A stretch of DNA of 64,000 nucleotides from a virus (IMGVR_UViG_2862611759_000001), one strand, 5' to 3'. Shown: positions 253 through 64,000, counted from the first letter of the stretch. The notes: generated by a model from the letters alone, not told the origin. A program made the numbers and translations.

Positions 253-270
253 CCGCCACACCCTACGTGC
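253..270 (-). promoter_or_regulatory. Putative -10 element (TAGGGT) for a leaderless murB transcript
   Basis: Minus strand reads cacgTAGGGTgtggcggGTG: a TAnnnT hexamer 7 nt before the start codon, with no Shine-Dalgarno sequence. Confidence 0.55.
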
Positions 271-397
271 CGCACCGCTACGGGCCGCAGATGCAGGTCA
301 GGAGGCGTGAGCCCGGTCACATCAGGAGAGGGGCGGCAGACTCCCGAGCGGCCGCCCGGCGCCGTCGGGATGCCCGGCCGCCAGTCGCTTCAGTCGT

Positions 398-1114
398 TCA
401 GGCGAGCCCCTTGCCGTTGTCGACGTGCCGGGCGCGAGGGACTCCCGCGTAGCGGGATGACTGGCCGCCGGGCGCCCCACGCATCATCCGCTCGGCATCG
501 GCGCGCCGCTCTTCGACGTCGCTGACCGGATTCACCTCCGTCCAATACACGTCGAGCATCGTGCGAAGCGACACCTGGTCCTGATCCGGCCCGGTGGGCA
601 CCGTGAGCTGGTCCAGGACTCGCCAGAGTTCGTAGTCCTGCTGCTCGGCAACGCCGCCAGCGCGGGCGTGAGCGGCCTGATGCTTGCTCACTGCGAGGGC
701 GAGGAGGCGGAGAGTGTTGCGCTGGGCACCGAAGCTTCGGTCGCCTGCGGATCGGTTCTGGTCCCTCATGATCCGAGCGATCTCGGAGAGGGCCTTCTGC
801 ATCGTCTGGTGGAAGTTGCCAGCGCGGGATCGCCAGCTCTCGTATTCGGCGCGCGTCTCGAACCAATCCCGCTTGCCCTCATAGCCGCGGGCGAGACATT
901 CCTGCTGAAAGACCTCCCGCTCCGCCTTCCGCTTGCGCAGGGCGTGGGCGGTGCGCTGGTGCTTGGCTGCCGCGACGGACTGGGTGCGGCGGATGTTGTC
1001 GGGATGGGTCAGCCCGGCCCAGACGTCGGGGTCGCGGACGGGCGGGTGTACGTGGGCGAGGAGTAACTCCTCGAAGGCTTCGTCGTCGAGCGCGGTGATC
1101 TGACGAGCGTCCAT
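398..1114 (-). CDS. Hypothetical protein (helical, 238 aa)
   Basis: ORF 398..1285; ATG at 1114 (MDARQITAL) preceded by GGAGG. Confidence 0.75.
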   Translation of the reverse strand: MDARQITALDDEAFEELLLAHVHPPVRDPDVWAGLTHPDNIRRTQSVAAAKHQRTAHALRKRKAEREVFQQECLARGYEGKRDWFETRAEYESWRSRAGNFHQTMQKALSEIARIMRDQNRSAGDRSFGAQRNTLRLLALAVSKHQAAHARAGGVAEQQDYELWRVLDQLTVPTGPDQDQVSLRTMLDVYWTEVNPVSDVEERRADAERMMRGAPGGQSSRYAGVPRARHVDNGKGLA

Positions 1115-1294
1115 GAACTGGCCTCCAAGCCGGTCTTGGGCGAATAGTCCCATCTTCCCGTCCCAGGAGGGCCTGCGGCGGCCGATTGGCGAACTGCGGC
1201 CGTTCAAGGGCTGTCTGAGGCCACCAGTCGCCAGAGCGAGGACGGCTAGGAAGGTGGGCGTACGGGCATCACGCCGTACGCCCACCTCACCAGG

Positions 1295-2770
1295 TCAGAA
1301 CGGCGCATCCGAGCTGTAGGCGGCGAGCCCCGGGTTCTGGGCGGCGAACTCCGCGCGCAGCCGGGCGTCCTCAGCATCTACCTGCACGGCAGCAGCTTGC
1401 TGCTCGGCCCGGCGGGCGTCCTCCATGTCCCACTGCCCGACCAGGTCAGCACCTGCCGCTGCAGCTTCCTGTTTCTCCTGGCAGTCGTCACACAGGGCGC
1501 GCCCCGCCCGGACGGACCGGGTGCAGTAAGGGCCGGTGCAGTCCTCCAAGAGCGGCTTCGACGGCGCCACGGGGGCCCGCTGCGGCGGCACTGGCGGCTT
1601 CTCCCCGCTAGGGGGCCGGTTCCGCTGCTGCGCGGCCTTCCAGTCGGCGATTCGGACCGCGCACAGGCGGCAGTCCTCCTCTACGCCCGTGACCTTCACG
1701 CGGCCGTTCTCGCACCCGGCGTCGGCACAGGCGTACTTGTCTCCCCGGCGCAGCGGCCGGACGAGGGCCACGACGGTGCCAACCGGGTTCCGCAGCTGGC
1801 CGGCAGCGACCTTCTCGGCGAAGCCGTGGTGCAGCCAGCGGTACAGGATCCGCTGCCCCATTTCCTCGACGCTCCGCCCGTCCGCGGCCATCGCCGACAG
1901 AATCGCGTCGGCGACGACGGGAAGGCGGACCTGGTCGACGGGCAGCTCAGGCGGCAGGAACGCGAGGACCTGTTCGACCGTGGCCCGCTCGGCGCGGCTG
2001 TGCCGCTTCCCGCCGGCCGCCGCCTTCTTCGTCGAGGGGGAGCGCTGGGTCTTGCCGGACGCGGCGGAGCCGCCTTCGTCCCCAGCAGCCCTACTACCGG
2101 TAGACGAAGGGCTACGCCCGTCCACGGGGCTACGCCCCGACAGGGGCATCCCGTCTTCGCTCTTAGTTTCAGAGAGAACAGTCTTCTTCCTTATATGAGC
2201 CGCCGGGTGACCGACGGTCGGTGGACCGACCGTCGGTGAGCCGTAGGTCGGTCGCGAGTCACCCTCTGGCCAGGGCTCGGCGTTCTCCCTGGTCGCACCG
2301 ACCGACGGGATTCCCGCACCCGGTCGCGACCAGCCCGCCCCGTTCTTGTTCGGGTCCAGGTGCTCCGGCTCGATCCGGTGCGACTTCACGTTCCCGCCGT
2401 CATAGATCTCCGCCAGCATGGCGCTCACGTCCTCGGCCGTGAAGGCGAACGAGTCGACGCTGAACGTCGTGTACCAGGAGCCCCCGCGCTTCGCGACGAG
2501 CTCCCCGTCCTCCTCGACCATCTCGGAGGCGGCCCGCTGCAGCTTGAACTTCACGACGAACGCCTTCTCCACGAGCATTCGCATTGCTTTGGTCAGGGCC
2601 TCACGGCCCTCGACGTGCGTCTTGCACAGGCCCTCGACGGTCACATCCTCGCCGTCACGCGCGCGGATCAGCTTCGTCAACAGGCCCGTCGCCAAGACCG
2701 ACGGCAACGCGTCGATCGCCGTGTTCTCGACCGCCGCGAAACGGTTCGGCCTCGATGCTCGCTTCCTCAT
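1295..2770 (-). CDS. Phage replication initiator / replisome organiser-like protein (N-terminal wHTH, C-terminal Cys clusters)
   Basis: N-terminus FAAVENTAIDALPSVLATGLLTKL...VEGLC...GREALTKAMRML is typical of lambda-O-like initiators; internal PTVG repeats; CxxxC and CxxC motifs. Confidence 0.65.
   Translation of the reverse strand: MRKRASRPNRFAAVENTAIDALPSVLATGLLTKLIRARDGEDVTVEGLCKTHVEGREALTKAMRMLVEKAFVVKFKLQRAASEMVEEDGELVAKRGGSWYTTFSVDSFAFTAEDVSAMLAEIYDGGNVKSHRIEPEHLDPNKNGAGWSRPGAGIPSVGATRENAEPWPEGDSRPTYGSPTVGPPTVGHPAAHIRKKTVLSETKSEDGMPLSGRSPVDGRSPSSTGSRAAGDEGGSAASGKTQRSPSTKKAAAGGKRHSRAERATVEQVLAFLPPELPVDQVRLPVVADAILSAMAADGRSVEEMGQRILYRWLHHGFAEKVAAGQLRNPVGTVVALVRPLRRGDKYACADAGCENGRVKVTGVEEDCRLCAVRIADWKAAQQRNRPPSGEKPPVPPQRAPVAPSKPLLEDCTGPYCTRSVRAGRALCDDCQEKQEAAAAGADLVGQWDMEDARRAEQQAAAVQVDAEDARLRAEFAAQNPGLAAYSSDAPF
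2109..2252. repeat. Iteron-like repeats plus AT-rich patch inside the initiator gene (candidate origin)
   Basis: GGGCTACGCCC at 2109 and 2127; AT-rich 2162-2197; ACCGACGGTCGGT, ACCGACCGTCGGT and GCCGTAGGTCGGT at 2210, 2225 and 2240 (15-bp period). Confidence 0.55.
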
Positions 2771-3481: not shown

Positions 3482-4252
3482 TCATGCCTGGTGCCTTCCG
3501 GGAAGAGGCAGTGCCTCGTAGACGAGATCCATCCGGTCTCCCGCGGCAACTACACGGAGCAGCTCCAGCGGGCGACCAGCGTTGTCGCGACTGATCCTTT
3601 CAACCGTGAGCACGGGCAGGGCAAGCCCTGTGCCGAGCTGTGCTCCCTCCTCCTTCGTGGGCATCCGGGCCCCGACGCGCTCGTCGGCCTCAGCTGGCGC
3701 CATTCCTGCAGCGGCCAGCGCTCCGTAGACGCCGCCTGTCACCTTGCCCGGCTGGTCCAGGCCGGCTGCCTGCGCCACGTCGAGCGGGTACCAGGCCTGC
3801 TGGAACTGGACGACCTGCTCCTCTATGTGCGCCTCACGACGCCGGCAGACCAAGGCGTCTTCGGACTCGAGGCCCAGCAGGGCCGCGACATCCGGGGCAC
3901 GCACCTGCTCCACCGACACGGTCTTCATGACGCCCCTCAACCCCTGCGCCTCGCAGGCGGCTTCGAAGGGGCCGAGCTGGCCATCTGAGTCCAGCGAGCC
4001 TTGGTAGCGGCTCAGCGGTATCCGGACGGGTCGCCTATCTCGGACGACGGTTCCGTAGCGACGTCGCACTACGACCAGCCCTTCCTGCGCGAGCACGTCA
4101 ACGGCAGCCCTGACGGTCTGCTTCGACACGCCGAACCGCTCCACCAGGTCGTCGGTGAACGGCAACTTCTTGCCGGGCGGGAGTTCTCCGCTTTCGATCT
4201 GGGCGCGCAGCTCGTCCGCGATGTCGCGGTACTTCGGCTGGGGCTTCGGCAT
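3482..4252 (-). CDS. GntR/HutC-family (KorSA-like) transcriptional repressor with UTRA domain
   Basis: KYRDIADELRAQIESGELPPGKKLP...FGVSKQTVRAAVDVLAQEGLVVVRRRYGTVV, followed by a UTRA-type C-terminus; divergent from the spread/transfer operon. Confidence 0.92.
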   Translation of the reverse strand: MPKPQPKYRDIADELRAQIESGELPPGKKLPFTDDLVERFGVSKQTVRAAVDVLAQEGLVVVRRRYGTVVRDRRPVRIPLSRYQGSLDSDGQLGPFEAACEAQGLRGVMKTVSVEQVRAPDVAALLGLESEDALVCRRREAHIEEQVVQFQQAWYPLDVAQAAGLDQPGKVTGGVYGALAAAGMAPAEADERVGARMPTKEEGAQLGTGLALPVLTVERISRDNAGRPLELLRVVAAGDRMDLVYEALPLPGRHQA

Positions 4253-4293
4253 CCGGTCCTCCTCTCTAATCACGAGACTATTCGCCGCCTAGC

Positions 4294-4432: not shown

Positions 4433-4867
4433 ATGAATCAGGATCGCACGAAGACCCCCACCTCCATCTACACCGCCTCCCACGGCGCGGCTGAGGCCCT
4501 GCGCCGAGCGCGGCTGGACGACGCGAACGTGGCCCGTCCGGCGCGTCGGACGCTCGCTGAGATGGCCCCCGGTTTCGAGCGGCAGCCGGTGCTGCGTCTC
4601 GCCCCGGCGGTCGAGCGGTCCGAGGTCGACGCGGCCCGCGCCGCTGTCCGACGGCTGACCACCTACGTCGAGTCGCCCAGCTTCCAGAGCGTGCCGTGCG
4701 AGACGCAGGCCGCCGCGCTGGACAACCTCCGGTTCGAGAAGAAGCGGCTGGCGAAGCTGACCGCGAGCAACGAGCGCTGCCCGATCTGCGACATGTGGCT
4801 GTGCCCCGGGACGTGCGGCGGCTTCACCCCGTCCGGCCCGGCCTCCGCCTCGAAGGTCGTGGCGTGA
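4433..4867 (+). CDS. Hypothetical protein with C-terminal Cys cluster
   Basis: ATG at 4433 after AGGAGG; CPICDMWLCPGTC motif. Confidence 0.7.
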   Translation: MNQDRTKTPTSIYTASHGAAEALRRARLDDANVARPARRTLAEMAPGFERQPVLRLAPAVERSEVDAARAAVRRLTTYVESPSFQSVPCETQAAALDNLRFEKKRLAKLTASNERCPICDMWLCPGTCGGFTPSGPASASKVVA

Positions 4868-5046
4868 TGGCAGCGGGCGCGGAGTACGACGAGCTGGACC
4901 CGCTGCTGGTCGCTGCGATCGAGGACCACTTCGCCGCCGTCGACCCGATCAGCCTCCTCGCGGACGCGCTGAACGGCGCCGACCCGGAGGCCGGTGTCCT
5001 GGCGTACGAGGCGTTCCTGGGTGAGTCGGTGGAGGGGGAGCTGTGA
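4867..5046 (+). CDS. Small acidic hypothetical protein
   Basis: Overlapping stop/start codons at both ends; MAAGAEYDELD. Confidence 0.6.
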   Translation: MAAGAEYDELDPLLVAAIEDHFAAVDPISLLADALNGADPEAGVLAYEAFLGESVEGEL

Positions 5047-5465
5047 TGGCGAAGGGCTCCTACCCCTGGTATCACCGGCCGGGCGAGCTGCAGCCGCCGG
5101 TTGAGGTCGGTGTTCCGCCGCTCGACGACGAGCTCGAAGGCGTCCTCGACGACACCGCCGGGGTCCACCCCGGGGTCGACATGATCCGCGACGGGATCCG
5201 CCTCCTTGCGCTGGACGCCCTGACGGCGGACCAGACGCAGACGATCCTCTCCACGATCGCCGGGAACGGCACCGACCTGCTGGCCGCGTTCGGGCTGCTG
5301 GTGCAGCGGCTGACGAACGCCGACTCGAACCCGGCGCTCGACGGCCTGGACGCGGAGACGGCCAAGCAGGTCGAGCTGTGCGGCGAGCGGTTCGCGTACG
5401 AGCTGGCGGAGTTCGCGCCGCGTGATCACACCGGCGAGGCCGCCGCCCTCATCGACCGCTCCTGA
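5046..5465 (+). CDS. Hypothetical protein
   Basis: ORF track; coupled start; GC3-rich codons. Confidence 0.75.
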   Translation: MAKGSYPWYHRPGELQPPVEVGVPPLDDELEGVLDDTAGVHPGVDMIRDGIRLLALDALTADQTQTILSTIAGNGTDLLAAFGLLVQRLTNADSNPALDGLDAETAKQVELCGERFAYELAEFAPRDHTGEAAALIDRS

Positions 5466-5537
5466 CCCACCCGCACGGCACCACTGGGGCCCGGCAACGG
5501 GCCGGGCCCCGCTCCCGACCACCTGAGAGGGCCCGCC

Positions 5538-5963
5538 ATGTACACCAACTTCGCGCCCAACCCGGCCGACGCCGTCCCCGAGGAGATCCGCATCCAGAGG
5601 CGGCACCTGGAGAGCGGCCGCCGCGTCCTCAGCACCAACCACATCGTCGCCATCCCCGCTGGCCGGTACCAGGGCGTCGGCGGCGCCGTCATCGAGGCCG
5701 ACCTCCAGGTCAAGTTCTCCCGGAAGCGCAAGCATGGCTCCTTCACCGAGATGCAGGACGGCGTCGCCATCGCCGCCCTCGTCCGCTGCGCTGGCAACGG
5801 CTGCGCCGACCAGGAGCACCAGGTGCCCGCCACCGACGCCGTCCCGCTGAGCGCGGACGCCGACGAGGCCTCCGCCGCCGCACTGGCCCCCCTCGCCGCC
5901 GCCCGGAAGTGGGCGCAGCAGCACGCCGAGACGTGCCGCGCGCTCCCGTACAACGGCCGCTGA
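5538..5963 (+). CDS. Hypothetical protein (CxxxxC...HAETC Zn-like motif)
   Basis: RBS GAGAGGG; WAQQHAETCRALP ending common in Streptomyces mobile elements. Confidence 0.75.
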   Translation: MYTNFAPNPADAVPEEIRIQRRHLESGRRVLSTNHIVAIPAGRYQGVGGAVIEADLQVKFSRKRKHGSFTEMQDGVAIAALVRCAGNGCADQEHQVPATDAVPLSADADEASAAALAPLAAARKWAQQHAETCRALPYNGR

Positions 5964-6018
5964 TCAACACCCTCTGACCGCCCTGCCCGCGCCGGACCGC
6001 GCAGAAGGAGCATCCACC

Positions 6019-6318
6019 GTGGACCACACCCCCGAGAAGATCCTCGCCAAGTACGCCGACGACGTCGCGTTCGTCGTCGAAGACAACCCGGTCGTGGACC
6101 TGTGCGACCTCGGCAACCAGCTCCTCGACGCCGTCCACATCTTCAAGCGGAGCGGCATCAACGGCTTCGAGGACATCAGGGACGCCGTCACCTTCATCGA
6201 CGACGCCGAGTGGCGCGCTCCGGACGCCGCCGCGAAGCAGGTGCTGCTGAACCAGGTCGCCGACCGCCTGAAGGACCTGCCGGACATGGTCGCCGAGTAC
6301 CGCCTCGCCGTCGCCTGA
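6019..6318 (+). CDS. Hypothetical protein
   Basis: RBS AAGGAG; ORF track. Confidence 0.75.
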   Translation: MDHTPEKILAKYADDVAFVVEDNPVVDLCDLGNQLLDAVHIFKRSGINGFEDIRDAVTFIDDAEWRAPDAAAKQVLLNQVADRLKDLPDMVAEYRLAVA

Positions 6319-6408
6319 CCACCCTCCCCACGGTGTCCGGCCCGGGAGCCGACAACGGGCCGGACACCACCCCTCTCCCCGAACCAGAGACCTCACCGAA
6401 GGAGCCCC

Positions 6409-6711
6409 ATGTCCTCGCCCATCGCCAACTCCGTCGTCGTCATCGGTACCGCCTCCGCCAGCACCGTCATCGCCACCCAGGTCTGGATGTCCGGCGCCTC
6501 CGTGATGGCGACGGTGTCCGTCGTCGCCCTGGCCGTCGCGAACGTGGCGTGGGCGGTCAACGCCACGCGGCGCAGCGACTCCCCGAGCAGCACCGTGACC
6601 TGCGGCCAGGACGGGTGCGGCGTCCAGATCGAGATGGCTGGCGTCAGCGCGGACGAGCAGGCCCGCCTCACCGCCATCGCCACCGACCACGCCCGCCACG
6701 GCGCCGCCTGA
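6409..6711 (+). CDS. Small membrane protein
   Basis: RBS AAGGAG; two hydrophobic segments. Confidence 0.7.
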   Translation: MSSPIANSVVVIGTASASTVIATQVWMSGASVMATVSVVALAVANVAWAVNATRRSDSPSSTVTCGQDGCGVQIEMAGVSADEQARLTAIATDHARHGAA

Positions 6712-6785
6712 CCGCTGCGGGCGCCCTGGGGCCGGTCTCCCGGCCCCAGGGCTCCCACCGCCACCTGACCCGAGAGGAGCAGCAC

Positions 6786-6977
6786 ATGTCCCAGAAGGAC
6801 ATCGCCGCGGCGCTCGCCGTGGCAGCCGGCCAGCACTTCACCCGAACCCTCGCCGAGCACGGACCCGACAGCCCCGAAGTGCAGGAGGCCGTCGCCCTCG
6901 CGGACAACGCGCTCGACTACGCGGAGGACGCCGGCTGCACGAAGGCCGACTACCAGGCCGCCCGCATCAACCGCTGA
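6786..6977 (+). CDS. Small hypothetical protein
   Basis: GAGGAG RBS; MSQKDIAAALAV. Confidence 0.7.
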   Translation: MSQKDIAAALAVAAGQHFTRTLAEHGPDSPEVQEAVALADNALDYAEDAGCTKADYQAARINR

Positions 6978-7006
6978 CTCCGAGACCAGGAAGGACACCG
7001 ATCACT

Positions 7007-8542
7007 GTGACCATGACCCCGGCCGGCCCCGTGCCGCCCCAGCCCCTGACCATGGGGGAGTGGCAGCCCCTGCCCACCGGCGGGGTCACCACCCCCCGCA
7101 GCTCTGAGCCCGAGCCGCTGTCGATGGTGCAGAAGGTCCTCATCGGGACCGTCGCCGCCGCCGTTCTGACCATCGCGACCCTCGGGTTCATCGGCTCCTA
7201 CACCGCCGTCACCAAGCTCGCCAGGGCGAAGGGCTTCGGTGCGTTCGCAGACGCGTTCCCGGTCGCCGTCGACGCCGGCATCATCGCCTTCCTCGCCCTC
7301 GACCTCCTCCTCACCTGGCGCCGCATCCCCTACCCCCTGCTCCGCCAGACCGCCTGGGGCCTCACCGCGGCGACGATCGCGTTCAACGCCGTCGCCGCCT
7401 GGCCCGACCCGGTCGGCGTCGGCATGCACGGCGTCATCCCGATCCTGTTCGTCATCGCCGTCGAGGCCGCCCGCCACGCAGTGGGCCGGATCGCCGACAT
7501 CACCGCCGACAAGCACATCGAGTCACCGCCCCTGTCCCGCTGGTTCCTCAACCCCTTCAACACCTTCGTCATCTGGCGCCGCCAGCGGCTGTGGGACATC
7601 CGCTCCTACGCCGCCGTCATCGACCTGGAGCGGCAGGCCCGGATCTACCGCGCGCAGCTGCGTAAGCAGCACGGCCGGCGGTGGCGCCGGAAGGCGTCCG
7701 CCGACCAGCTTCTCGTCCTCGACCTCGTCGCCGACGGCATGAGCGTGGAGGAGGCGATCGATCTCCCCTACCAGGAGGAGAAGCGGCAGGCTGAAGCCGA
7801 AGCGAAGCGGCAGGCCGAAGCGAAGGCGAAGGCTGAAGCCGAAGCTGAAGCGAAGCACGCGGCCGAACTCCGCGACGTCGAAGCCGAAGCGAAGCGCCGG
7901 GCCGAACGTGCCGAAGCTGAAGCGGCCGAAGCCGAAGCGAAGTCCCGGGCCGAAGTCGCGGCCGAAGCGGCCCGGCTCGAAGTGGAAGCGAAGCGCCGTG
8001 AAGCCGAAGCGGCGGCCCGGGTGGTCGAAGCCGAAACCGAAGCGAAGCTCGAAGCCATCGCCCGGCGGCGCCGCGAGGCCGAAGCCGAAGCCGAACTGAA
8101 GCAGCGCGAGCAGCAGGGCCGTGCCCGGGAGATGGAGCGGCAGCAGAAGTTCGCGCAGGCCGCAGCCGAAGCCGAAGAGGTTCGACGCCAGGAGCTGGCC
8201 GCCGCGCAGGACCGGGCGCAGCGTGTGGCGGCCGAAGCCCGGACCCGAAGCGCCACTTCGGTTTCGCTTCGGCCCGGGGCCACGGGTTCGGCTTCAGCTT
8301 CGGGTGCCACTTCAGGTTCGGGTGCCGGAGCGGTCGCCCTCGGCGGGCAGCGCTCGAAGCGCGAATCCGAAGTGGAGCAGGTCCTCGCCCGCCTCCTCGA
8401 AGCCGACAGCCCGGAGGCCGTGTCCCTGGAGGACGTGATGAACGACTTCGGGCTGAAGCAGACCACCGCCTACGACCGCCTGAAGTCCGCCCGGGTCCTC
8501 TTCGAGGACGCGAAGCAGACCACCGACACCCGAAGTGCCTGA
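7007..8542 (+). CDS. DUF2637 / SpdB2-like plasmid spread membrane protein (TM helices, coiled coil, C-terminal HTH)
   Basis: Four TM segments with GSY...L and PVAVDAGI motifs; AEA-rich coiled coil; C-terminal SLEDVMNDFGLKQTTAYDRL helix-turn-helix. Confidence 0.8.
   Translation: MTMTPAGPVPPQPLTMGEWQPLPTGGVTTPRSSEPEPLSMVQKVLIGTVAAAVLTIATLGFIGSYTAVTKLARAKGFGAFADAFPVAVDAGIIAFLALDLLLTWRRIPYPLLRQTAWGLTAATIAFNAVAAWPDPVGVGMHGVIPILFVIAVEAARHAVGRIADITADKHIESPPLSRWFLNPFNTFVIWRRQRLWDIRSYAAVIDLERQARIYRAQLRKQHGRRWRRKASADQLLVLDLVADGMSVEEAIDLPYQEEKRQAEAEAKRQAEAKAKAEAEAEAKHAAELRDVEAEAKRRAERAEAEAAEAEAKSRAEVAAEAARLEVEAKRREAEAAARVVEAETEAKLEAIARRRREAEAEAELKQREQQGRAREMERQQKFAQAAAEAEEVRRQELAAAQDRAQRVAAEARTRSATSVSLRPGATGSASASGATSGSGAGAVALGGQRSKRESEVEQVLARLLEADSPEAVSLEDVMNDFGLKQTTAYDRLKSARVLFEDAKQTTDTRSA
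7791..8330. repeat. Dense (G)CCGAAGC-type short repeats that invert orientation near 8255 (candidate clt/TRS)
   Basis: Dozens of CGAAG/CCGAA cores on the top strand over 7791-8250, then TTCGG/CTTCAG cores over 8256-8325. Confidence 0.6.
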
Positions 8543-8559
8543 CCCAGAAGGAGCCCCCG

Positions 8560-8790
8560 ATGTCGAACCCCCCGAAGACCTGGACCGGCACCACCGTCGC
8601 CGAGGCCATCGACCTCCTGGACGCCGCCCGCGGCCTCCTCCTCGCCAAGATGGCCGCCGCGGTCCCCGGAGACGGACACGGCCAGTGGAAGACCCAGAAG
8701 ACCACCCCGGTCATGGTCACCGTCACCCTCGACCACAGCGCGCTCGACGCCCTGATCGACGCCCGCCACAGCACCCCGGCGGCCGACTGA
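8560..8790 (+). CDS. Hypothetical protein
   Basis: RBS AAGGAG; ORF track. Confidence 0.7.
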   Translation: MSNPPKTWTGTTVAEAIDLLDAARGLLLAKMAAAVPGDGHGQWKTQKTTPVMVTVTLDHSALDALIDARHSTPAAD

Positions 8791-9314
8791 TGGCGACGCA
8801 GAGCCTGCCCGTCACGGCGCCGGCGGCCCGCCGCCCGGCGCCGCGGCCGACTGCCCCGGTCACCCCGCGGCCGCCGCGCGGCCCCCACCGGCTGCACGTA
8901 CCGCTCCCGACGCTGGCCCCGGACCCCCCGACCTGGGGGCAGCGCCTGATCCCCAAGGGCGTCCGGTCCGCGATGGCTGACCTGGGGCTCTGGCAGGAGC
9001 CGCGCCCCTTGAAGCCCTCGTACCACCTGGCCCAGGTGATCGAAGTCCTGACCCGCTACGGCTGGGGCCAGTCCTTCGACTTCTCTCCCACCGGCCGTAT
9101 GTGCATCAGGGGTGCCCAGACCTTTCTGGAATCCACCGGGCATGTGACCGCGATCGACCGGGGGAAGGCCGTGAATTATCTCCAGACCCAACTGGCCCGC
9201 CAGGGTGTGGAGATGGAGTTTTGGGCGTGGAACGACCTTTCCGGCAACACTTTCCAAGGCGTGGAGGCCATGATCTCTGCGGCCTCCGGCCTGGCGCGTA
9301 AGAACGGAGAATAA
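8790..9314 (+). CDS. DUF6197-like hypothetical protein
   Basis: VLTRYGWGQ...GRMCIRGA...WAWND pattern; coupled ATG at 8790. Confidence 0.7.
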   Translation: MATQSLPVTAPAARRPAPRPTAPVTPRPPRGPHRLHVPLPTLAPDPPTWGQRLIPKGVRSAMADLGLWQEPRPLKPSYHLAQVIEVLTRYGWGQSFDFSPTGRMCIRGAQTFLESTGHVTAIDRGKAVNYLQTQLARQGVEMEFWAWNDLSGNTFQGVEAMISAASGLARKNGE

Positions 9315-9315
9315 A

Positions 9316-9963
9316 ATGACACCGGATGAAGAGAGCGCATTCGAAGGAATTCAGGCCGGAATGGTGGCTGGAATGGCCTTCGGGAACGACGCTCCCGACG
9401 TTTCCCCGTACGCCGATGAAAGCCCGTACGGAACGCCGGTCGTGAAGTCCGAGAAGGCTGGTCTGACCCGTCGGGGGAAGGTCGCCGTCGCGGTCGCCGG
9501 GGTCGCGCTCGTCGGCGGCGGGACCATCTGGTTCCAGGTCCACTCGGCGGCCGTCGCGAAGGACGAGAAGGAGGCCGCCGCCCTCCAGATCCAGATGAAG
9601 CAGCTGGAGCTGGAGGAGATGAGGATCCGCAACGCGCAGGCGAGCAGCGACCAGAAGGCCGCGACCGCCTCCGCCGAGAAGGTCCAGGCGGCCGTCGACA
9701 AGTGCGTGAAGGACTCCTTCGCGCTGGCCGACAAGGGCTACGGACCGCCCTCGCGGAGCGCCGTCGTGGCGGACTGCAAGCAGCAGTACGAAACCGTCGA
9801 CGGGTCCCTCATGACGGCCGCCAGCAACGTCCAGGCCGCCGGCCGCGGTGCAGGCGGAGCGGGGAGCGAGGGGATCAACTCCCCGACCCTGCTGGGCCTG
9901 GTCGCCGGAGGCGGCCTGGCCATCGCGGTGTTCGCGCGCAAGGGCAAGAAGGCCGACGCATAG
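9316..9963 (+). CDS. Membrane protein of transfer region
   Basis: N- and C-terminal TM helices flanking a coiled coil with two Cys. Confidence 0.75.
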   Translation: MTPDEESAFEGIQAGMVAGMAFGNDAPDVSPYADESPYGTPVVKSEKAGLTRRGKVAVAVAGVALVGGGTIWFQVHSAAVAKDEKEAAALQIQMKQLELEEMRIRNAQASSDQKAATASAEKVQAAVDKCVKDSFALADKGYGPPSRSAVVADCKQQYETVDGSLMTAASNVQAAGRGAGGAGSEGINSPTLLGLVAGGGLAIAVFARKGKKADA

Positions 9964-10109
9964 TCACGAAAAGTAGTCGAGGTGGTTACTCCTTCCCTGC
10001 TCCCGGCCGCCTGAACAGCGAAAAGGTGCCTCTGGAGGTGCCCTCGCGGCCTTCCCAGTTCGGGAAGCGAGTAGGGAGTAACCACTCTGAGTGACGATCG
10101 AGGGAGAGT

Positions 10110-10667
10110 ATGAGGCACGACAGGACCGGCAGGAGCAACGCGCACGGCGTGGTCTACGTGATCGGATCCGCAGCTGACCGGCGGGTGAAGATCGGCTCTG
10201 CAGGCAACGCGCGCAACCGCCTGATGGAGCTGCAATCGGGCAACCCGAACCCCCTCCGGATCCTGGCGACCGTCGAGGGCGGGCGCCTTCTGGAGAGGCT
10301 GATCCACGAGCACCTGAAGCGCTTCCGGGGGATCGGGGAGTGGTTCGACTTCGGAGAGGCGAACCCCATTCACATGGTCACCGACGCGGTTCAGGCCCTT
10401 CGGGACAAAGGGCTGTTCCCATCTCCGGAAGGGCTGGAAGAGCTCCGGGAAAGCCAGAAGCGATCGCCCTCTGCGCTCACGGTCAAGGAGAAGATCCTGG
10501 CCTCTTTGAAGGCCGGCGTCGCTCCGATGACGGTGCATGAAGTGGCCACGGCGACAGGCGTTTCCGTGCCCCATCTGGGCGTGAAGCTGTCCGAGCTCAA
10601 GAGCGTCGGGCTGGTCAGCAATTCGGAGCGCCGGTGGTCGCTGGTGGTACACGAGGAAGGTGAGTGA
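10110..10667 (+). CDS. GIY-YIG (T5orf172/Mug113-like) nuclease fused to winged HTH
   Basis: VYVIGS...VKIGS...RLMELQSGNP...LERLIHEHL...GEWF; C-terminal MTVHEVATATGVSVPHLGVKLSELKSVGLV. Confidence 0.8.
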   Translation: MRHDRTGRSNAHGVVYVIGSAADRRVKIGSAGNARNRLMELQSGNPNPLRILATVEGGRLLERLIHEHLKRFRGIGEWFDFGEANPIHMVTDAVQALRDKGLFPSPEGLEELRESQKRSPSALTVKEKILASLKAGVAPMTVHEVATATGVSVPHLGVKLSELKSVGLVSNSERRWSLVVHEEGE

Positions 10668-54469: not shown

Positions 54470-55792
54470 ATGCCCTCTTCCGAGAGCAGGAACGGGTACA
54501 TAGTGCAGTACGACGCTGCTGTTTGTCAGCTTCCGCGCGCCCGAGAGGGCGATTCGCGGCTTATCTCCCTCCCCTCGGGTGACATCCCGTGCCAGAGAAC
54601 CGTCTCCGAGCACGTCCTCGTGCGCGGTGCCGAGCAGGAGATCGCGCACACGGCGTCCCGCCGGACGGGCCCCCGCCGGTGGCTCCGCTCGACCCGCTGG
54701 CTCATCCAGGCCGGCTACCACCCACGCGCCAACCGCACGACGCTCGCCGTCGCTGAGGACCTCGCTGCGCGCATGGACTACGACACCGGGCACGCCCGGT
54801 ACTGCCTCGACGAGATGGCCGCCCGCCTCGGCATCAACCGGGCGACCGTGAAGCGGCACGTCGCCGTCCTCCGCGAGCTCGGCGCCCTCGTCTGGGTCGT
54901 GCACGGCACCAAGACCAACGTCCGCCGCGCCCTCGGCCTGACCGGCTACGCCGGCACCGCCACCATCTACGCCGCGGTGATCCCCCCGGTCTACGACCGC
55001 GCCATGGGCCACCGGATCATCGGCTCCGGCTACGAGGCCCGCGCCCTCGCCACCCCCCCGAAGCCTGTGGACAACCCGCCTGTGGAAAACCGCTGTGCGC
55101 CCCCTTCCCTGGTCTCGGTAGATGAGGAGGGTCAGGTGCAGGTAGTGGGTGGTGAAGAAGACACGACGCGCAAGCGCGCGCGGCGAACCGCATCCACCTC
55201 GACCGACAACAAGCGCAACAGCAACGGCGGGGCCGCCCGCCGTTCTCCCGCTCAGGTCGCCCGGGAGCTCCAGGAGACCCGCCTGGTCCGCGCCCTGGTC
55301 AACTGGACGCAGGGCGAGCGGCGGCTCCGGCGGCTCGCGTTCGTGCTGCGGCCGCTCTTCGACCGGGGTCTGACCGGGCAGCAGATCGCCGACGAGCTCA
55401 GCGGCATGTGCCTGGGCTGGCGTCCGAAGCACCCGGCCGCCTTCATCCGCAGCACCCTGGCCCAGGACGCCGCGCGCCTTGCCGAGCTCGACTCCGCCTC
55501 GCACGAGGAGGGCCCCCGGAACGCCGTCGGCGACTGGGCTGGCTGCGCTCTCCCCGTCGCTGAGGGAGCCGGGATCGACGTCGCCGAGGGCGAGATCGAC
55601 CTCAGCACCGAGGACCTCGCCGAGATGCAGCTGCAGGCCACCTCCGACCTCGGCATCGTCCGCGCCTGGATCGCCACCGCGGGCGAGGACGGCGCGCGCA
55701 AGGTGTACGGCGACCGGCTCGTCCGCCTGGCCCAGCTCGAGATCTCCACGAACATCCGCATCAACCCCTGGAAGGACGCCACCTATGCCTGA
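54470..55792 (+). CDS. Plasmid-type replication initiator (RepA-like, wHTH)
   Basis: TTLAVAEDLAARMDYDTGH...MAARLGINRATVKRHVAVLRELGAL wHTH, as in Streptomyces theta-plasmid Rep proteins; internal DnaA boxes; adjacent to dciA-like gene and parBA. Confidence 0.7.
   Translation: MPSSESRNGYIVQYDAAVCQLPRAREGDSRLISLPSGDIPCQRTVSEHVLVRGAEQEIAHTASRRTGPRRWLRSTRWLIQAGYHPRANRTTLAVAEDLAARMDYDTGHARYCLDEMAARLGINRATVKRHVAVLRELGALVWVVHGTKTNVRRALGLTGYAGTATIYAAVIPPVYDRAMGHRIIGSGYEARALATPPKPVDNPPVENRCAPPSLVSVDEEGQVQVVGGEEDTTRKRARRTASTSTDNKRNSNGGAARRSPAQVARELQETRLVRALVNWTQGERRLRRLAFVLRPLFDRGLTGQQIADELSGMCLGWRPKHPAAFIRSTLAQDAARLAELDSASHEEGPRNAVGDWAGCALPVAEGAGIDVAEGEIDLSTEDLAEMQLQATSDLGIVRAWIATAGEDGARKVYGDRLVRLAQLEISTNIRINPWKDATYA
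55066..55089 (-). promoter_or_regulatory. Tandem DnaA boxes
   Basis: TGTGGACAA (=TTGTCCACA, Streptomyces consensus) at 55066 and TGTGGAAAA at 55081. Confidence 0.7.
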
Positions 55793-56597
55793 CGCACCGC
55801 GCCCCTCCGGCGCCGACCTCGCCCGCCAGGCCCTCGCCGCCTACAAGACCGGCCGCCGACCGGGCACCGGACCGGTCAAGCCCGTCCGCCGGCTCCAGCG
55901 CCGCGGCATCGACGGCCGCGACCCCCAGACCTTCGGCGCCGTCCTCGACCGGCTCCGCACCGAGCAGGGCTGGACCGGCCGAGTCCAGGGCGGCAACATC
56001 CTCGCCCGCTGGACCGAGCTCTACCCGCAGTACGACGGGAACGTCCTGGCCGTCGCCTACGACGCCGAACGCCGCCGCCTCGACCTGCGTCCCGGATCCC
56101 CCGCCTACGCCACCCAACTGCGACTCCTCGGCGGACAGCTCTGCCACCAGATCAACGACAAGGTCGGTGCGGATGCCGTCCGCAGCATCCGCGTCCTGCC
56201 GATCGGAACGGTCACCCCCGCCGAGCCAGATCGGTTTACCGCGGTAAACCCCGAGGCCGCCCCGGGCGCCGAGGCAAGGTCGGTCCGGAGCCGGGAAACC
56301 GCGTCGGCCGGCTACCACCAAGCCCTCGCCGCCCACCGAGAGGCCTACCGCCCACCGGCCGCCAGCACCGAGTTCGCCACCCTGTGCGCCGAGGCCGAGG
56401 CCCGCCAGGTCGCCGCCCTTCGCGCCCACCGCGAGGCCCCCGAGGCCCACGCCGAGTACCTGGCCCAACTGGAGCTGCAGCAGCGCGGCCTGCCCAGCGA
56501 CGACTACGAGACCACCATCCAGGCCGCGCTACGCCGGGCCCGCACCGGCCAGCCCACCGGCAGCCGCGAGCCCCGACAGGTCTTCGGCGCTGCCTGA
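55785..56597 (+). CDS. DUF721 / DciA-like helicase loader
   Basis: SGADLARQAL...GRDPQTFGAVLDRL..EQGW...ILARWTEL...SPAYATQLRLL...INDKVG...IRVL. Confidence 0.75.
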   Translation: MPDAPRPSGADLARQALAAYKTGRRPGTGPVKPVRRLQRRGIDGRDPQTFGAVLDRLRTEQGWTGRVQGGNILARWTELYPQYDGNVLAVAYDAERRRLDLRPGSPAYATQLRLLGGQLCHQINDKVGADAVRSIRVLPIGTVTPAEPDRFTAVNPEAAPGAEARSVRSRETASAGYHQALAAHREAYRPPAASTEFATLCAEAEARQVAALRAHREAPEAHAEYLAQLELQQRGLPSDDYETTIQAALRRARTGQPTGSREPRQVFGAA

Positions 56598-56837: not shown

Positions 56838-58250
56838 ATGCCGCGCAAGGGATCGGGCGGATCACAGAACACGACCGGGGCAGGCATGTCCGACGTGCCT
56901 CTCCGGCCCACCGCGCTCCCCCGGAAGGCGGCGACGAACAGCATCATCGCCAACCCCAGGAACCTGCGCGACGGCGACCTGTGGGAGAACGAGAAGCAGA
57001 TGCAGGACATGGTGCACTCGATCCGCACCGTGGGCCTCATCCAGCCGCTGGTCGTCTGCACCCGCGAGGGATACCTCAAAGCTCATCCCGCGGATGAAGA
57101 ACTGGTCGCGGCCGCCGACTTCGTCATCCTGGCCGGCCACCGCCGACACGCTGCCTGCCTCGAAGCTCCCCTCGACACGGTGCGCATCGAGGTCAACGAC
57201 GACCAGATCCCCAACATGGACCTCCTCATGCTGGAGGAGAACCTGAAGCGCAAGGAGCTGACGGTCCTCCAGGAGGCCGAGGGCTACCGTCGCATCGAGG
57301 CCAAGGGCGACAGTCACGCGACGATCGCCGCGAAGGTGGGCAAGTCCAAGTCGACCATCACCAAGCGCCTCGCAATGCTTCGGCTTCCTGACGAAGCCAA
57401 GCGGGCGCTCCTCGACAAGACGCTCACCATCGACAACGCCTACAACCTCTACACCGCCCTCGGCAGGGAAGAGGGCGGGAGCCTGCACCTGCTGCTCACC
57501 GCCAACGAGATCCTCCGCAGCGACCGCACCCAGACCGCCATGGACGCCGTCAACAGGGTCCTGGCCGGTTCTGCCAGAACCGAAGCAGAACCGTCCTCCG
57601 CCACCCCGTCGAACACCAGGCAGCAGACGGCACCCGCTGCGGTGGCGGTTCTGGCAGAACCGGTTCAGGGCCCCACGGGCGTATCTCAGGACGATGCCTC
57701 CGTCCCTCACGCGCGCACCGAACCGGTTCTGCCAGAACCGGAAAGCGGCTCCGAGGACAGCGAGGCCCGCGAGCTCGTGCCCGCCGCCGAGGCCCCGCCC
57801 GCTGGGCAGCCTGAGCACGACGGATCGCCCGCCGAAGAAGTCAACGAGGTCCGGCAGCATGCGCTCGCGGCCGCGAGGCGCAACGAGTACTGCAAGGAGC
57901 ACGTGGCCGCCTACACCAACCCGGTCGTCGACTCCCACAGCAGCCGGGTGGCCGAGATGGCTGTCCGGCAAGCCTCACCCGCTGCCATCGCCCGCGCCCA
58001 CAAGTGGCTCAAGGAGCACGACGCGGACGCCGCCGGCGTTGGCGAGACCAGCTACCGCGACATGGTCCTCATGCTGGGCGAGCCTGCCCTTTCCCGGTTC
58101 GCCTACGCCGTTGCCCTGGGCGAGGCAGAGAACCGAGCTTCCGACCGCCGCCGACGCATCTGGGACTCCAGGGACGTCGCCTACCTGCAGCACCTGGTCG
58201 ACGTCGGCTACGAGCCGACGTCCTGGGAGAAGCAGCACCTCAGCCGATGA
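56838..58250 (+). CDS. parB: ParB/RepB/Spo0J partition protein
   Basis: NPRNLR, SIRTVGLIQPL, ILAGHRRHAA, ENLKRKEL and HTH SHATIAAKVGKSKSTITKRL. Confidence 0.92.
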   Translation: MPRKGSGGSQNTTGAGMSDVPLRPTALPRKAATNSIIANPRNLRDGDLWENEKQMQDMVHSIRTVGLIQPLVVCTREGYLKAHPADEELVAAADFVILAGHRRHAACLEAPLDTVRIEVNDDQIPNMDLLMLEENLKRKELTVLQEAEGYRRIEAKGDSHATIAAKVGKSKSTITKRLAMLRLPDEAKRALLDKTLTIDNAYNLYTALGREEGGSLHLLLTANEILRSDRTQTAMDAVNRVLAGSARTEAEPSSATPSNTRQQTAPAAVAVLAEPVQGPTGVSQDDASVPHARTEPVLPEPESGSEDSEARELVPAAEAPPAGQPEHDGSPAEEVNEVRQHALAAARRNEYCKEHVAAYTNPVVDSHSSRVAEMAVRQASPAAIARAHKWLKEHDADAAGVGETSYRDMVLMLGEPALSRFAYAVALGEAENRASDRRRRIWDSRDVAYLQHLVDVGYEPTSWEKQHLSR

Positions 58251-58273
58251 CGCGCCCCCGCCCTGGAGCCTCC

Positions 58274-59161
58274 ATGAACCCCACTTACCTGCCCCCGAAG
58301 TACGCCCCTCATCTACAGATCCCGGTCTTCCTCGTGATGAACCGGGCCGGCTCCGTCGGCAAGACGAGTGTCGCCAACAGCGTCTTCACGCTCGCTGCCC
58401 TCCGAGGCTGGACAGGCCTCATCATCGACGCCGACCTGCAGAGCGACATGTCCTTCTGGTTCGGCTACGACGGCGACATGGTGCCGGAGGACACTCCGAC
58501 GATCCACGACCTGATGCTCGGCAGCGCCACTCTCGAAGCCGTGACGGTGCCCGCGCGCACTCGGATCGCGGCCGGACAAGGCGACGACGCCTTCCAGGAG
58601 ATCCCCGGCCTCGACCTCGTCCGCGGCGACATCAAGATGAAGCAGGCAGACGGCGAGCTCGTCAGCGCCAAGGACGCTCTCGCGGTGTTCTGGCTGCAGA
58701 ACGTCATCCGCAAGCAGGTCCCCCAGGGCAAGTACGACTTCATCGTCATCGACGCGCCGGCGTCCTACGGGCGCCTGTCCGAGTCGCTGCTCGTGGCCGC
58801 CACGGACGTCATCACGATGATGAAGCCGATGCGGAAGGAGCTCCGTGGCGCCGCGGCGCTTGCCAAGGAGATCGTCTCGCTCAACGACGACTACGACAGG
58901 CACGACGTACGGGTCTCGCCGACCTGGTACTGCATCAACGACGCCAAGGTCGCCAGCCAGGGCCACTTCTTCAGCAACATTCAGGACGAGGCCCGTGAGA
59001 TCTACGGCGATCGACTCCTTCCCGAGCTGAAGAACGCGGTCATCGTCGCCGAGGCGTACGACGCTCAAGAGCCGCTGCCGATCTGGGCGCCGAAATCCGA
59101 GTCGATGAAGACCATCGGCCTCATCGCGGACCAGCTGGGCTTCCCCGAGAAGAGGGCGTAG
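58274..59161 (+). CDS. parA: ParA-family partition ATPase
   Basis: NRAGSVGKTS, IIDADLQ, YDFIVIDAPAS and LLVAATDVI motifs. Confidence 0.9.
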   Translation: MNPTYLPPKYAPHLQIPVFLVMNRAGSVGKTSVANSVFTLAALRGWTGLIIDADLQSDMSFWFGYDGDMVPEDTPTIHDLMLGSATLEAVTVPARTRIAAGQGDDAFQEIPGLDLVRGDIKMKQADGELVSAKDALAVFWLQNVIRKQVPQGKYDFIVIDAPASYGRLSESLLVAATDVITMMKPMRKELRGAAALAKEIVSLNDDYDRHDVRVSPTWYCINDAKVASQGHFFSNIQDEAREIYGDRLLPELKNAVIVAEAYDAQEPLPIWAPKSESMKTIGLIADQLGFPEKRA

Positions 59162-59731
59162 CCGGTTCTGGCAGAACCGGTCCGTCGCATGCAGCCGGCC
59201 GGTTCTCCGGAAGCGTGTGAGCCGCTGGCCTCGAGCACTGCCAACGTCGTCTGGTCGGTTCTGGCAGAACCGACCAGACGACGCGCTGTTGGTCCGTCGC
59301 AACACATCGCCCCGCAGCCCAGCACTGGATGCCGGTTCTGGCAGAACCGGGGTACCGCCCTGGCGAGGCGTCTGGCTACAATCGCCGTCATCTGACGGGC
59401 GTGCCCCGTGAGGTCTCTGAGCCCCTGTGGGCTGGGTCGTTGTCGGCAAAACTCCGTCCCTTCCTGCAGGGGCTTCTTCATGGCCGGAACACGGCGGCCA
59501 CAGAAACCGACCATTTTCGGCCCAGCGCAGAGCGGTCTGGCGCAAAATGTGTGGTTTGTTTGTGGAGGGTGACGTCAAAAACAGACCGCGCCTCCCCACG
59601 ACGGGCGTTTTGGTGCGACAGTGGCGTACCTGGGGCGGGCGGCAGCCGCCCCGGCCCGACGGATCTGGCCAAGGGGAGTGCCAGGGTCGTCGGAACCCTT
59701 CCCGGACTGCCCCCGGAGCGGAGACGCCCCA

Positions 59732-62583: not shown

Positions 62584-62605
62584 CCCACGCCCCGAGGACA
62601 CAGCC

Positions 62606-63013
62606 ATGGCGCACAACCTGCGCATCGACCCGACCACGCCCGAAGGCGAAGCGATCGTCACCCTGTTCAACCTCATCCAGGCCGACGAGGAGGAGGACGG
62701 GACATGGAATGCCGTCGACGCCGTCGACACCCTCTGCCGCTGGTTCCGCGAGCGGGGCATCGACATCGACGCCGGCCCGATCGAACCCCACGCGACCGGT
62801 CCCGAACCGCTCATCGTGTCCCGCTTCGACATCGCCATGGAGCCCGCGCCCGAGGAGGACCCGGTCCTCACCATCGGCGCCATCGCTGACAACGCACAGC
62901 CCGTGGCGCTGCTCTTCGACCGCGAGGACCGCGTCAAGGTCGCCCACTGGCTCCTCGGCGGAGAGCAGGACGACATCCGGATCCGGCGTACCCGCCACGC
63001 GGAGCGCTCGTGA
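62606..63013 (+). CDS. Hypothetical protein
   Basis: GAGGA RBS; GTWNAVDAVDTLCRWF. Confidence 0.7.
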   Translation: MAHNLRIDPTTPEGEAIVTLFNLIQADEEEDGTWNAVDAVDTLCRWFRERGIDIDAGPIEPHATGPEPLIVSRFDIAMEPAPEEDPVLTIGAIADNAQPVALLFDREDRVKVAHWLLGGEQDDIRIRRTRHAERS

Positions 63014-63138
63014 CCGGGCCCGCCGCCATCGCCATCGTCCTCGGCCTCATCGCCGCCGCCCTGGTCGCGCTCTCCCAGCACGGCCTCGGCACCCGCACTC
63101 TCCCGCCCCAGGACCCTCCGGACGGAGACCAGCCGTGA
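63010..63138 (+). CDS. Small single-TM peptide
   Basis: Coupled GTGA at both ends; AIAIVLGLIAAALVAL. Confidence 0.5.
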   Translation: MTGPAAIAIVLGLIAAALVALSQHGLGTRTLPPQDPPDGDQP

Positions 63139-63611
63139 CCACCAGCACCCACGCCGCCCCCGCGCCGATACCCGTCCGCCCCCACCCCGCCGCCGACCAC
63201 CGGCCGTTCATCACCGAGGCGCAGACGGCCGCGTACACCGCCGCCCTCCGCGCCGGAGTCACCCGCCTCACCATCACCGGCTGGGAGCAGCAGGCCGACG
63301 GCTCCCTCCTCCAGATCCTCCCCACCGGCGCCGCCCTCGCCTACAGCCCCGGCACCCCCCTCACCGCACTCACCCCCTGCGCGGCCGGCGTACGGCACCC
63401 GCACCCCGTCGCCACCCTCGCCGACCTCCGCAACGCCCAGGCCGACGCCGCCGCCTGCACCTCGGCCCACCGGCCGCCCACACGGCCCGAGCCGACGCCC
63501 GCCGTCCGGCCCCTCGCCGACGCCTTCCCCCACGGCCCCGGCGCGGACACCCAGCCCCTCGACGTCACCACCCTCCGCGCCGACCACGCCCAGGAGCACT
63601 CCCATGGCTGA
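63135..63611 (+). CDS. Hypothetical protein
   Basis: Coupled start; overlaps the next gene start. Confidence 0.6.
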   Translation: MTTSTHAAPAPIPVRPHPAADHRPFITEAQTAAYTAALRAGVTRLTITGWEQQADGSLLQILPTGAALAYSPGTPLTALTPCAAGVRHPHPVATLADLRNAQADAAACTSAHRPPTRPEPTPAVRPLADAFPHGPGADTQPLDVTTLRADHAQEHSHG

Positions 63612-64000
63612 CACCACCACCATCGAGTGGACCGACCGCACCTGGAACCCGACGACGGGCTGCACCCAGATCTCGGCCGGCTGCGACCACTGCTACGCCA
63701 AGACCATCGCCGAGCGCTTCCGCGGCACCGCCGCTTTCCCCCACGGATTCGACGTCCGCATCCGCGACGAGAAGGTCAACGCCCCGCTCTCCTGGCGGCG
63801 CCCGGCGAAGGTCTTCGTCAACTCCATGTCGGACCTGTTCCACCAGGACGTCGACGAGGCCTGGATCGCGAACATCGTTGCCGTCATGGCCGCCGCCCGC
63901 CGCCACACCTTCCAGCTCCTCACCAAGCGGCACGCCCGCATGCGGTCCCTGTTCACCGACCCGAACTTCACCGCCCAGGTGTGTACGCTCGCCCGCGGCA
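63604..64000 (+). CDS. DUF5131 (phage Gp37/Gp68, radical-SAM-like) protein, truncated by window end
   Basis: MADTTTIEWTDRTWNPTTGCTQISAGCDHCYA...FVNSMSDLFH...HTFQLLTKR. Confidence 0.9.
   Translation, partial: MADTTTIEWTDRTWNPTTGCTQISAGCDHCYAKTIAERFRGTAAFPHGFDVRIRDEKVNAPLSWRRPAKVFVNSMSDLFHQDVDEAWIANIVAVMAAARRHTFQLLTKRHARMRSLFTDPNFTAQVCTLARG

Follow-up and report, generated by a model that had tools for sequence, protein, structure and literature searches.

The DNA considered here is the virus record IMGVR_UViG_2862611759_000001, a single contig of 95,688 bp with a GC content of approximately 70% and no Ns; its first 64,000 bases are the stretch that was analysed and are referred to below as the window. 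On the whole record 126 open reading frames (ORFs) were predicted by third-position GC, some of the smallest of them doubtful, and all were profiled against Pfam, PHROGs and NCBIfam. The window carries a transfer region with a TraB-type translocase, a full set of virion and lysis genes, two putative tyrosine recombinases, a regulator flanked by palindromic operators and a group of replication and partition genes, and it opens in a fragment of a murB gene (Table 1). With a probability of roughly 0.85, the whole record represents a single copy, circularly permuted, of a Streptomyces phage-plasmid of the pZL12 type that exists outside the chromosome. The element is complete and well preserved, and is a new member of a family that was already known.

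Table 1. Features of the record, in order of position (numbered from its first base)
Feature	Position	Strand	Evidence or remark
murB paralogue, N-terminal 87 codons	1..261	-	NCBIfam MurB NF010478 E 1e-24; runs off contig start
Conserved 491-aa protein g003, pZL12.82 homologue	1295..2770	-	tblastn 40% pZL12, 54% CP108353; no Pfam match
GntR/UTRA (HutC-type) regulator	3482..4273	-	Pfam GntR E 6e-19, UTRA E 1e-19
Transfer operon including downstream gene	4433-16145	+	Divergent from GntR gene
Genes upstream of traB: small ORFs, DUF2637, DUF6197, nuclease, 592-aa ORF	4433..12851	+	Pfam
DUF2637 membrane protein	7007-8542	+	Pfam
DUF6197 ORF	8790-9314	+	
T5orf172/GIY-YIG-like nuclease	10110-10667	+	Pfam
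TraB-type FtsK-like dsDNA translocase, 779 aa	12964..15303	+	Motifs, model, winged helix-turn-helix
32-bp palindromic operator, copy 1	15321..15352	.	Directly 3' of traB
RapZ C-terminal-domain protein, 3' of traB	15336..16145	+	Pfam PapZ_C E 5e-21
Virion and lysis set	17186-42139	+	Pfam, PHROGs, NCBIfam
Putative small terminase, large terminase (TerL)	17186..19328	+	Small: position, PHROG 645; large: PHROG 38 TerL E 3e-104, Pfam Terminase_6N
Portal, scaffold, head decoration protein, major capsid protein	19940..25310	+	PHROGs 64, 2303, 3583, 29; Pfam Phage_cap_E E 3e-25
Head-tail connectors, tail tube, chaperones, tape measure, Dit, minor tail proteins	25307..40384	+	Pfam Phage_TTP_16, PhageMin_Tail, SPP1_Dit; PHROG tail families
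Tail tube	28958-29749	+	Pfam Phage_TTP_16
Tape measure, 1745 aa	30796-36033	+	Pfam PhageMin_Tail
Endolysin (Amidase_2 and peptidoglycan-binding repeats), holin	40679..42139	+	Pfam Amidase_2 E 9e-18, NCBIfam PG_bind_siph, PHROG 9752 holin E 2e-33
Cre-like tyrosine recombinase g052	44620..45789	+	phmmer vs PDB
g053, Xer-type tyrosine-recombinase fold	45857..47008	+	ESM Atlas model, TM 0.57-0.67 to PF00589 clusters
WYL-domain regulator	47633..48082	-	Pfam WYL E 5e-9; beside operators 48119, 48194
Other operator copies in the window	48119-48150, 48194-48225, 61262-61293		
Early/recombination genes: AAA_24 ATPase, C5 cytosine methyltransferase, conserved small ORFs	48878..53180	+	Pfam AAA_24, DNA_methylase; collinear with CP108353, pZL12
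Helix-turn-helix protein g063 (54470-55792) and DciA-family protein	54470..56597	+	Weak helix-turn-helix matches; DciA Pfam
ParB, ParA, three parS-like palindromes	56886..59350	+	Pfam and NCBIfam
Operator copies beyond the window	67320, 88692		
murB paralogue, C-terminal 159 codons (MurB_C), beyond the window	95207-95686	-	Profile match

The relationship to pZL12 is evident from gene sharing. Of the predicted ORFs, 80 are shared with the contig G001:C32, 67 with the plasmid NZ_CP108353.1 (CP108353) and 54 with pZL12 (by tblastn), in every case collinearly, and the set collinear with pZL12 extends over the virion, transfer, recombinase and replication/partition regions. The record is of the size of the self-contained circles of approximately 86-100 kb that make up the family, and its ends are bridged by three relatives, closure itself not having been read. 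An earlier note, made from the window alone, had proposed such a comparison and had described a pZL12 relative with phage, plasmid and conjugation modules in one element and a full virion and lysis gene set; all of this is borne out. The same note regarded the lifestyle as under-described, but a three-way lifestyle is already established for the pZL12 family. It had further placed the block in a chromosome, with an integrated prophage as a fourth state, and it is on this point that our analysis departs from it.

The truncated ends of the two murB pieces, at opposite ends of the record, both point outward. Outward-facing murB ends at both record ends are what is expected of a circle that was opened inside one gene, an insertion into murB giving the reverse arrangement. 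What looks like a chromosomal flank is thus the element's own copy of murB. Nucleotide homology to the chromosomal murB of related hosts is confined to the coding sequence (2-252/256 and 95212-95688). The break is spanned by relatives: in the CP108353 circle the genes flanking both record ends are neighbours, in G001:C32 and G002:C27 the record ends fall within the contig, separated by 4-7 kb, with order and strand kept, and reciprocally the ends of G001:C32 map inside the element record at 62245/62317. murB is not present on the plasmid in any of these three relatives, and the hosts G001-G003 have one murB each, elsewhere in the genome. A search of viral contigs with the gene adjoining murB returned two distant relatives only, at 53-54% identity, and the record ends carry no exact repeats, whether direct or inverted, of 20-200 bp.

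Logan contigs of the likely source run, X1, were compared with the left end of the element. Element unitigs cover 184-6000 at a depth of 490-567 with no differences, and a 1514-nt unitig with a depth of 258 matches 184-240 only, with 4 differences, before it runs on into the N-terminus of a canonical MurB. This means that the host has a murB of its own and that the element copy is a paralogue at approximately twice the depth, in a comparison that uses one chromosomal unitig and in which contig depth is not equivalent to copy number. The element- and host-specific unitigs both end at 184, the interval 184-213 is common with deeper unitigs (634-662), and one deeper shared unitig ends 13 nt past the contig start. 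This topology suggests that the centre of murB is identical in plasmid and chromosome, which would account for an assembly break at that place. We note that the first codons and flanks of the element murB differ from those of the host and that the centre is seemingly identical, a pattern that resembles gene conversion or recombination. Two apparent joints in run X1 were 24-letter sides of one contig and were disregarded. Run X2, with a depth of 3-5, leaves 1-230 uncovered and is uninformative either way on integration. This run has another organism label and comes from another study, and the pieces listed from it are identical to the element over 231-6000 (0 differences); the same plasmid is present in a second sample.

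Within the record, neither att-like direct repeats nor tRNA genes (Rfam, 0 matches) were found. An 84-nt tRNA-Gly(ccc) called by ARAGORN at 48375-48458 lies within a conserved ORF and has no Rfam match; it was rejected as an att target and is probably a false positive. Chromosomal DNA on both sides, att direct repeats and often a tRNA target are expected of an integrated prophage or of an actinomycete integrative and conjugative element (AICE), and none of these was found here. TRF detected low-complexity coding repeats only. No long direct repeats mark boundaries at approximately 16.2-17.1 kb or 43.8 kb, where the earlier note had considered that separate tandem elements might meet, and the arrangement of the genes at the transfer/virion junction (16372-17749) is kept in pZL12 and CP108353; its further thought that modules might occur independently does hold for one segment of the transfer region, discussed below.

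The behaviour of the family elsewhere is in agreement with a free state. Among relatives of the capsid protein in species-representative assemblies, 43 stretches fit the pattern and 8 were confirmed, all 8 on contigs of 89-100 kb. The virion block is common to 37 plasmid records, all of them of Streptomyces except for 1 of Kitasatospora; those listed, 15 in number, measure 87.9-94.1 kb. In the phage collection phage ZL12 is the sole match, as two records of one genome. A capsid match at E<=1e-40 occurs in 36 of 401 Streptomyces genomes; identities of at least 76% are found on G001:C32, G334:C1 and G164:C50, and matches at megabase coordinates do not exceed 63%. Five genomes with the highest-identity capsid matches (60-78%) at high contig coordinates were tested further, several weaker megabase-coordinate matches being left out. 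A TraB match was found in none of the five. A g053-like match occurs in one (39%, on G334:C1), the host's own dciA lying instead on C2, and the only full-length match to the plasmid-type DciA is on G110:C2, which is not the contig with the host's own dciA. The chromosomal capsid relatives (<=63%) were accordingly rejected as integrated members of the family, being without TraB, g053 or plasmid-type DciA markers with these queries. They have the look of ordinary prophages, and no integrated member of the family was found among the genomes searched. No report of an integrated form of a pZL12-type element was found in the literature searched, and PMC12282955 and PMC13659240, where consulted, do not mention the family.

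Site-specific integration in the chromosome next to murB, which would make a prophage the fourth state, could draw on the murB fragment that adjoins the element at its left end, on the presence of tyrosine-recombinase genes and on the speculation about insertion by the authors of the pSLE1 sequence, in the passages that concern that plasmid (PMC4487206). We nevertheless hold it to be very improbable, since the other half of murB lies at the far end of the record in the orientation of a circle and not of an insertion, relatives bridge the record ends, the host murB is a separate unitig at approximately half the depth, att repeats and a tRNA were not found, all eight confirmed relatives are on contigs of approximately 90-100 kb, and the five genomes with high-coordinate capsids have no TraB match, the one g053-like and the one plasmid-type DciA match among them lying off the contig with the host dciA. 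Neither the integrated block nor the fourth state of the earlier note is supported by this evidence. Decay of the phage block, leaving a plasmid which no longer yields infectious virions, is also unlikely. Gene-free stretches in the virion block, at 19329-19939 between TerL and portal and at 21794-22557 after the portal (where there is a doubtful 47-aa ORF only), might be taken as signs of decay, and MOB-suite and other typing tools class such records simply as plasmids. Against this, all virion and lysis genes are uninterrupted ORFs that match relatives over their full length at 67-93% identity, 37 plasmids have kept the block, and pZL12, the type of the family, is said in the title of its paper to have a lytic phage cycle.

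Besides the limits of the depth comparison given above, several observations weigh against the record being a free, functional phage-plasmid. Approximately 112 codons (about 0.34 kb) of the conserved centre of murB are absent from the record, which leaves the circle unclosed, and the two murB pieces fall in different frames when the record ends are simply joined; because of this, circularity is deduced and not read. Reads were compared at the left record end only, and homologous (Campbell-type) integration through the seemingly identical murB centre may take place in some cells. As to the functional modules, the FtsK_SpoIIIE profile of Pfam matches TraB below threshold (13.5 bits against 24, E 0.049) and in the Walker A region only, no convincing family of clt-type 8-9 bp repeats is present in 12440-13000 or 15280-16400, no iterons were found upstream of the rep candidate, and no lox-like site (11-15 bp arms, short spacer) is present in 42550-44700 or 45700-47700. 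The murB observations could be accommodated by a mixed state, in which the element is mostly a free plasmid and is partly integrated in the chromosomal murB by a single crossover through the central tract. The plasmid- and chromosome-specific unitigs do converge on deeper shared unitigs at 184-213, the contig does break in the centre of murB, and the sharp passage from identity through 4 differences to the loss of all similarity may resemble a recombination or gene-conversion breakpoint. However, hybrid junctions are evident in neither reads nor contigs, the shared unitigs are less deep than 517 and 258 would give by simple addition, a free plasmid with a partly identical paralogue predicts an identical graph, and relatives lack murB, such that we regard a mixed state as improbable. 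Similarly doubtful is the idea of the murB tract, taken to be identical to that of the essential host murB, as a portable patch of homology that recombines reversibly with the chromosome, giving a fourth state that is homology-based and not integrase-based; were it true, the patch would open the way to Campbell-type integration, gene conversion, and Hfr-like mobilisation or packaging of chromosomal DNA.

For the free phage-plasmid, which we prefer, gene content, folds, collinearity with circular relatives, the lack of chromosomal flanks and the separate host murB are direct observations; every activity, from replication and partition to transfer and lysis, as well as what the recombinase does, is predicted from protein families. 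In lysogeny the element would persist as a low-copy circle, replicated by the helix-turn-helix initiator candidate g063 together with DciA. DciA scores 35.7 bits against a Pfam cut-off of 24 (E 1e-8), and g063 and DciA have tblastn identities of 48% and 50% to pZL12. g063 is a putative replication initiator by its homology to pZL12.20c, so that of the Rep-DciA-ParBA module of the earlier note DciA, ParB and ParA are identified as such, with parS-like palindromes in addition, and Rep stands as a candidate. The second initiator of that note fares less well: g003 gives weak leads to HTH_36/DUF6017 in the ESM Atlas, has no significant BLASTP similarity to g063, and is at most a possible DNA-binding or initiator-like protein. 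Partition would proceed through ParB and ParA acting on parS palindromes; the ParABS assignment is supported by Pfam AAA_31/CbiA, ParB_N and HTH_ParB and by TIGR00180 (85.7 bits against 58.45), and three palindromes of 19-20 bp that fit parS (59161, 59254 and 59331; span 59161-59350) lie directly 3' of parA.

The Cre-like recombinase g052 and its Xer-fold partner g053 would resolve dimers and keep the plasmid monomeric. The packaging of P1 and of pZL12 being taken as general background, the recombinase would also re-circularise terminally redundant virion DNA after infection, if packaging is headful as in P1. All 17 phmmer matches of g052 in the PDB are Cre or the Cre-derived Tre (best E 1.6e-8, residues 65-363), and the catalytic R, HxxR, W and Y align with Cre/Tre; the Pfam Phage_integrase match is below cut-off (20.3 bits against 27.1). 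g053 has no sequence match in the PDB and no significant BLASTP similarity to g052, and its assignment as a recombinase comes from its modelled fold. It is kept beside the recombinase in pZL12 (60%), CP108353 (74%) and G001:C32 (83%). The resolvase pair proposed earlier is thus supported for g052 through its catalytic residues, and for g053 through the Xer-type fold.

Of the two routes of spread that the gene content suggests, one would be mycelial conjugation of double-stranded DNA through TraB, repressed by the divergently encoded GntR (Kor-type) regulator. The 779-aa protein has the layout of the TraB proteins of Streptomyces plasmids, as judged from sequence and model. Neither Walker A (G399-K405) nor Walker B (D490-E491) varies across the 34 sequences aligned, and the AF2 model (pLDDT 77) finds as best Foldseek matches the FtsK motor 6t8o_A (E 3e-11) and TcpA, an FtsK-like coupling protein (E 1.7e-10). 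The winged helix-turn-helix is indicated by sub-threshold matches at 726-768 and, in the model, by helices at 692-751 that lead into a beta-hairpin at 755-768 (pLDDT 80-89). Database entries for homologues carry the name 'conjugative DNA transfer family protein' or FtsK. The GntR/UTRA protein is a candidate Kor/TraR-type repressor of the divergent operon, pZL12.80 being a GntR protein at the equivalent position. Transmembrane-like segments are present in g010, g012 and g015, and the operon genes upstream of traB are Spd-like by position only; Spd proteins are described as diverse and without similarity to characterised proteins in the part of the literature that treats them (PMC4170104). The Kor-Spd-TraB operon of the earlier note is hence upheld for the GntR/UTRA regulator and for the motor motifs and fold of TraB, and its Spd component by gene position.

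Over 8915-15305, a segment that starts inside the DUF6197 ORF and stops 2 bp past traB, the element shows 85-88% identity to 56 Streptomyces plasmids. The 15 plasmids listed with this transfer block measure 62-320 kb and do not overlap with the 15 listed for the virion block. TraB is 44% identical to its counterpart on G001:C32, compared with 67-93% for virion proteins between the same two elements, and the par genes and the rep candidate are likewise poorly shared with relatives. Strain NBC_01422 holds both kinds of replicon, a 158-kb plasmid with the transfer block and a 90-kb pZL12-like plasmid. These comparisons point to recent exchange of the transfer block with ordinary Streptomyces plasmids, and it would appear that the plasmid-side modules are swapped among replicons and the phage side is conserved. 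Among the 15 listed plasmids that share the block, only 2 have the nuclease gene annotated in the matching stretch, and this gene may be a mobile insertion.

The other route of spread would be as a siphovirus, from the virion and lysis block at 17-42 kb. Its tail region has two ORFs in the chaperone position and three minor tail proteins. The decoration protein (23724-24055) and the C-terminus of the tail tube (29421-29761) contain a repeated segment with 77-83% nucleotide identity, which is probably an Ig-like surface domain.

Control of the element probably centres on the WYL regulator, which would act on promoters across the element through six operator copies. The operator consists of 13-nt arms and a 6-nt spacer; all six copies in the contig are intergenic, they are spread over the transfer, early and accessory regions, and none arose in 20 shuffles. 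In CP108353, different but related (co-varying) palindromes are present at analogous places. The WYL protein is a homologue of pZL12.31, annotated as a 'transcriptional regulator', and is a candidate immunity repressor; the pattern of operators fits an immunity-type set in which repressor and operators would co-evolve.

The pZL12 plasmid was termed a singleton without close relatives in 2020, in the portion of PMC7157519 that refers to it, and its family now comprises at least 37 plasmid records. MOB-suite classes 34 of 37 family plasmids as 'non-mobilizable' despite their TraB-type genes. Relaxase-based typing misses conjugation of the Streptomyces type, so that the conjugative capacity of these phage-plasmids will escape surveys built on it. 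The element itself shows exchange of a transfer module with ordinary Streptomyces plasmids, and minor points of interest are this swapped module, the shared 32-bp operator and the murB cargo gene. Beyond the window, a Ku homologue (75651-76580) is found in CP108353 and G001:C32 and not in pZL12, and a PhlD/RppA-like type III polyketide synthase and an MmyB-like regulator are encoded at 79755-81775, the synthase pair being kept in pZL12, pSLE1 and CP108353.

Among known systems, pZL12 (phage ZL12; GQ919031) is a circular record of 90,435 bp, which reportedly replicates, transfers and has a plasmid/lytic phage cycle, going by the title of Zhong et al. 2010 (J Bacteriol 192:3747). Its modules are collinear with those of the element: the GntR regulator, membrane proteins, an FtsK-like Tra, the genes from terminase to tape measure and the lysin, an 'integrase/recombinase' with its partner, methylases, the 20c-type helix-turn-helix protein, a DciA-type ('Tra3-like') protein, Par, SSB and a type III polyketide synthase. 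In contrast, protein identity to the element is only 27-71%, TraB, the DUF2637 protein and ParA of the element have no tblastn match in pZL12 at E 1e-5, the order of the par genes is ParB-ParA in the element and ParA-ParB in pZL12, and pZL12 has no murB cargo. The closest sequenced relatives are NZ_CP108353.1, a complete circular plasmid of 93,006 bp, and G001:C32 (99,867 bp), with virion proteins up to 93% identical, G002:C27 measuring 89,258 bp; TraB has no match in CP108353, and the par genes of the element are not common to CP108353 and G001:C32. The plasmid pSLE1 of Streptomyces leeuwenhoekii (LN831788; 2015), with which the element would likewise be collinear, is described, in the sections of its report that deal with it, as an 86-kb circle that shows homology and synteny to pZL12. 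It carries phage genes, ParAB, a type III polyketide synthase and two integrase-like genes, and its authors speculated that the latter might permit insertion (PMC4487206). Its TraB-type protein (P0058) is 63% identical to that of the element, and pSLE1 is the smaller of the two, with no murB reported in those sections.

In pIJ101, pSVH1, SCP2, pSAM2 and SLP1, too, a GntR/Kor repressor controls an FtsK-like translocase of the TraB type that has spread genes next to it, as set out in those parts of PMC4170104 and PMC3583192 that cover Streptomyces plasmids. Unlike the element, Streptomyces conjugative plasmids and AICEs are without virion genes. AICEs integrate at tRNA genes. P1 of Escherichia coli resembles the proposed way of life of the element: it is a circular prophage-plasmid of low copy number that has ParA/ParB/parS as well as a recombinase of the Cre type, and the recombinase of our element, as judged from its sequence, would be Cre-like as in that phage-plasmid. 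P1 differs in being a myovirus of Enterobacteria without conjugation genes, and its sequence relationship to the element is limited to the recombinase. This account of P1 is supported in part by the relevant portion of PMC12282955. Set beside these systems, the pZL12 family joins spread by virions and spread by conjugation in one replicon.

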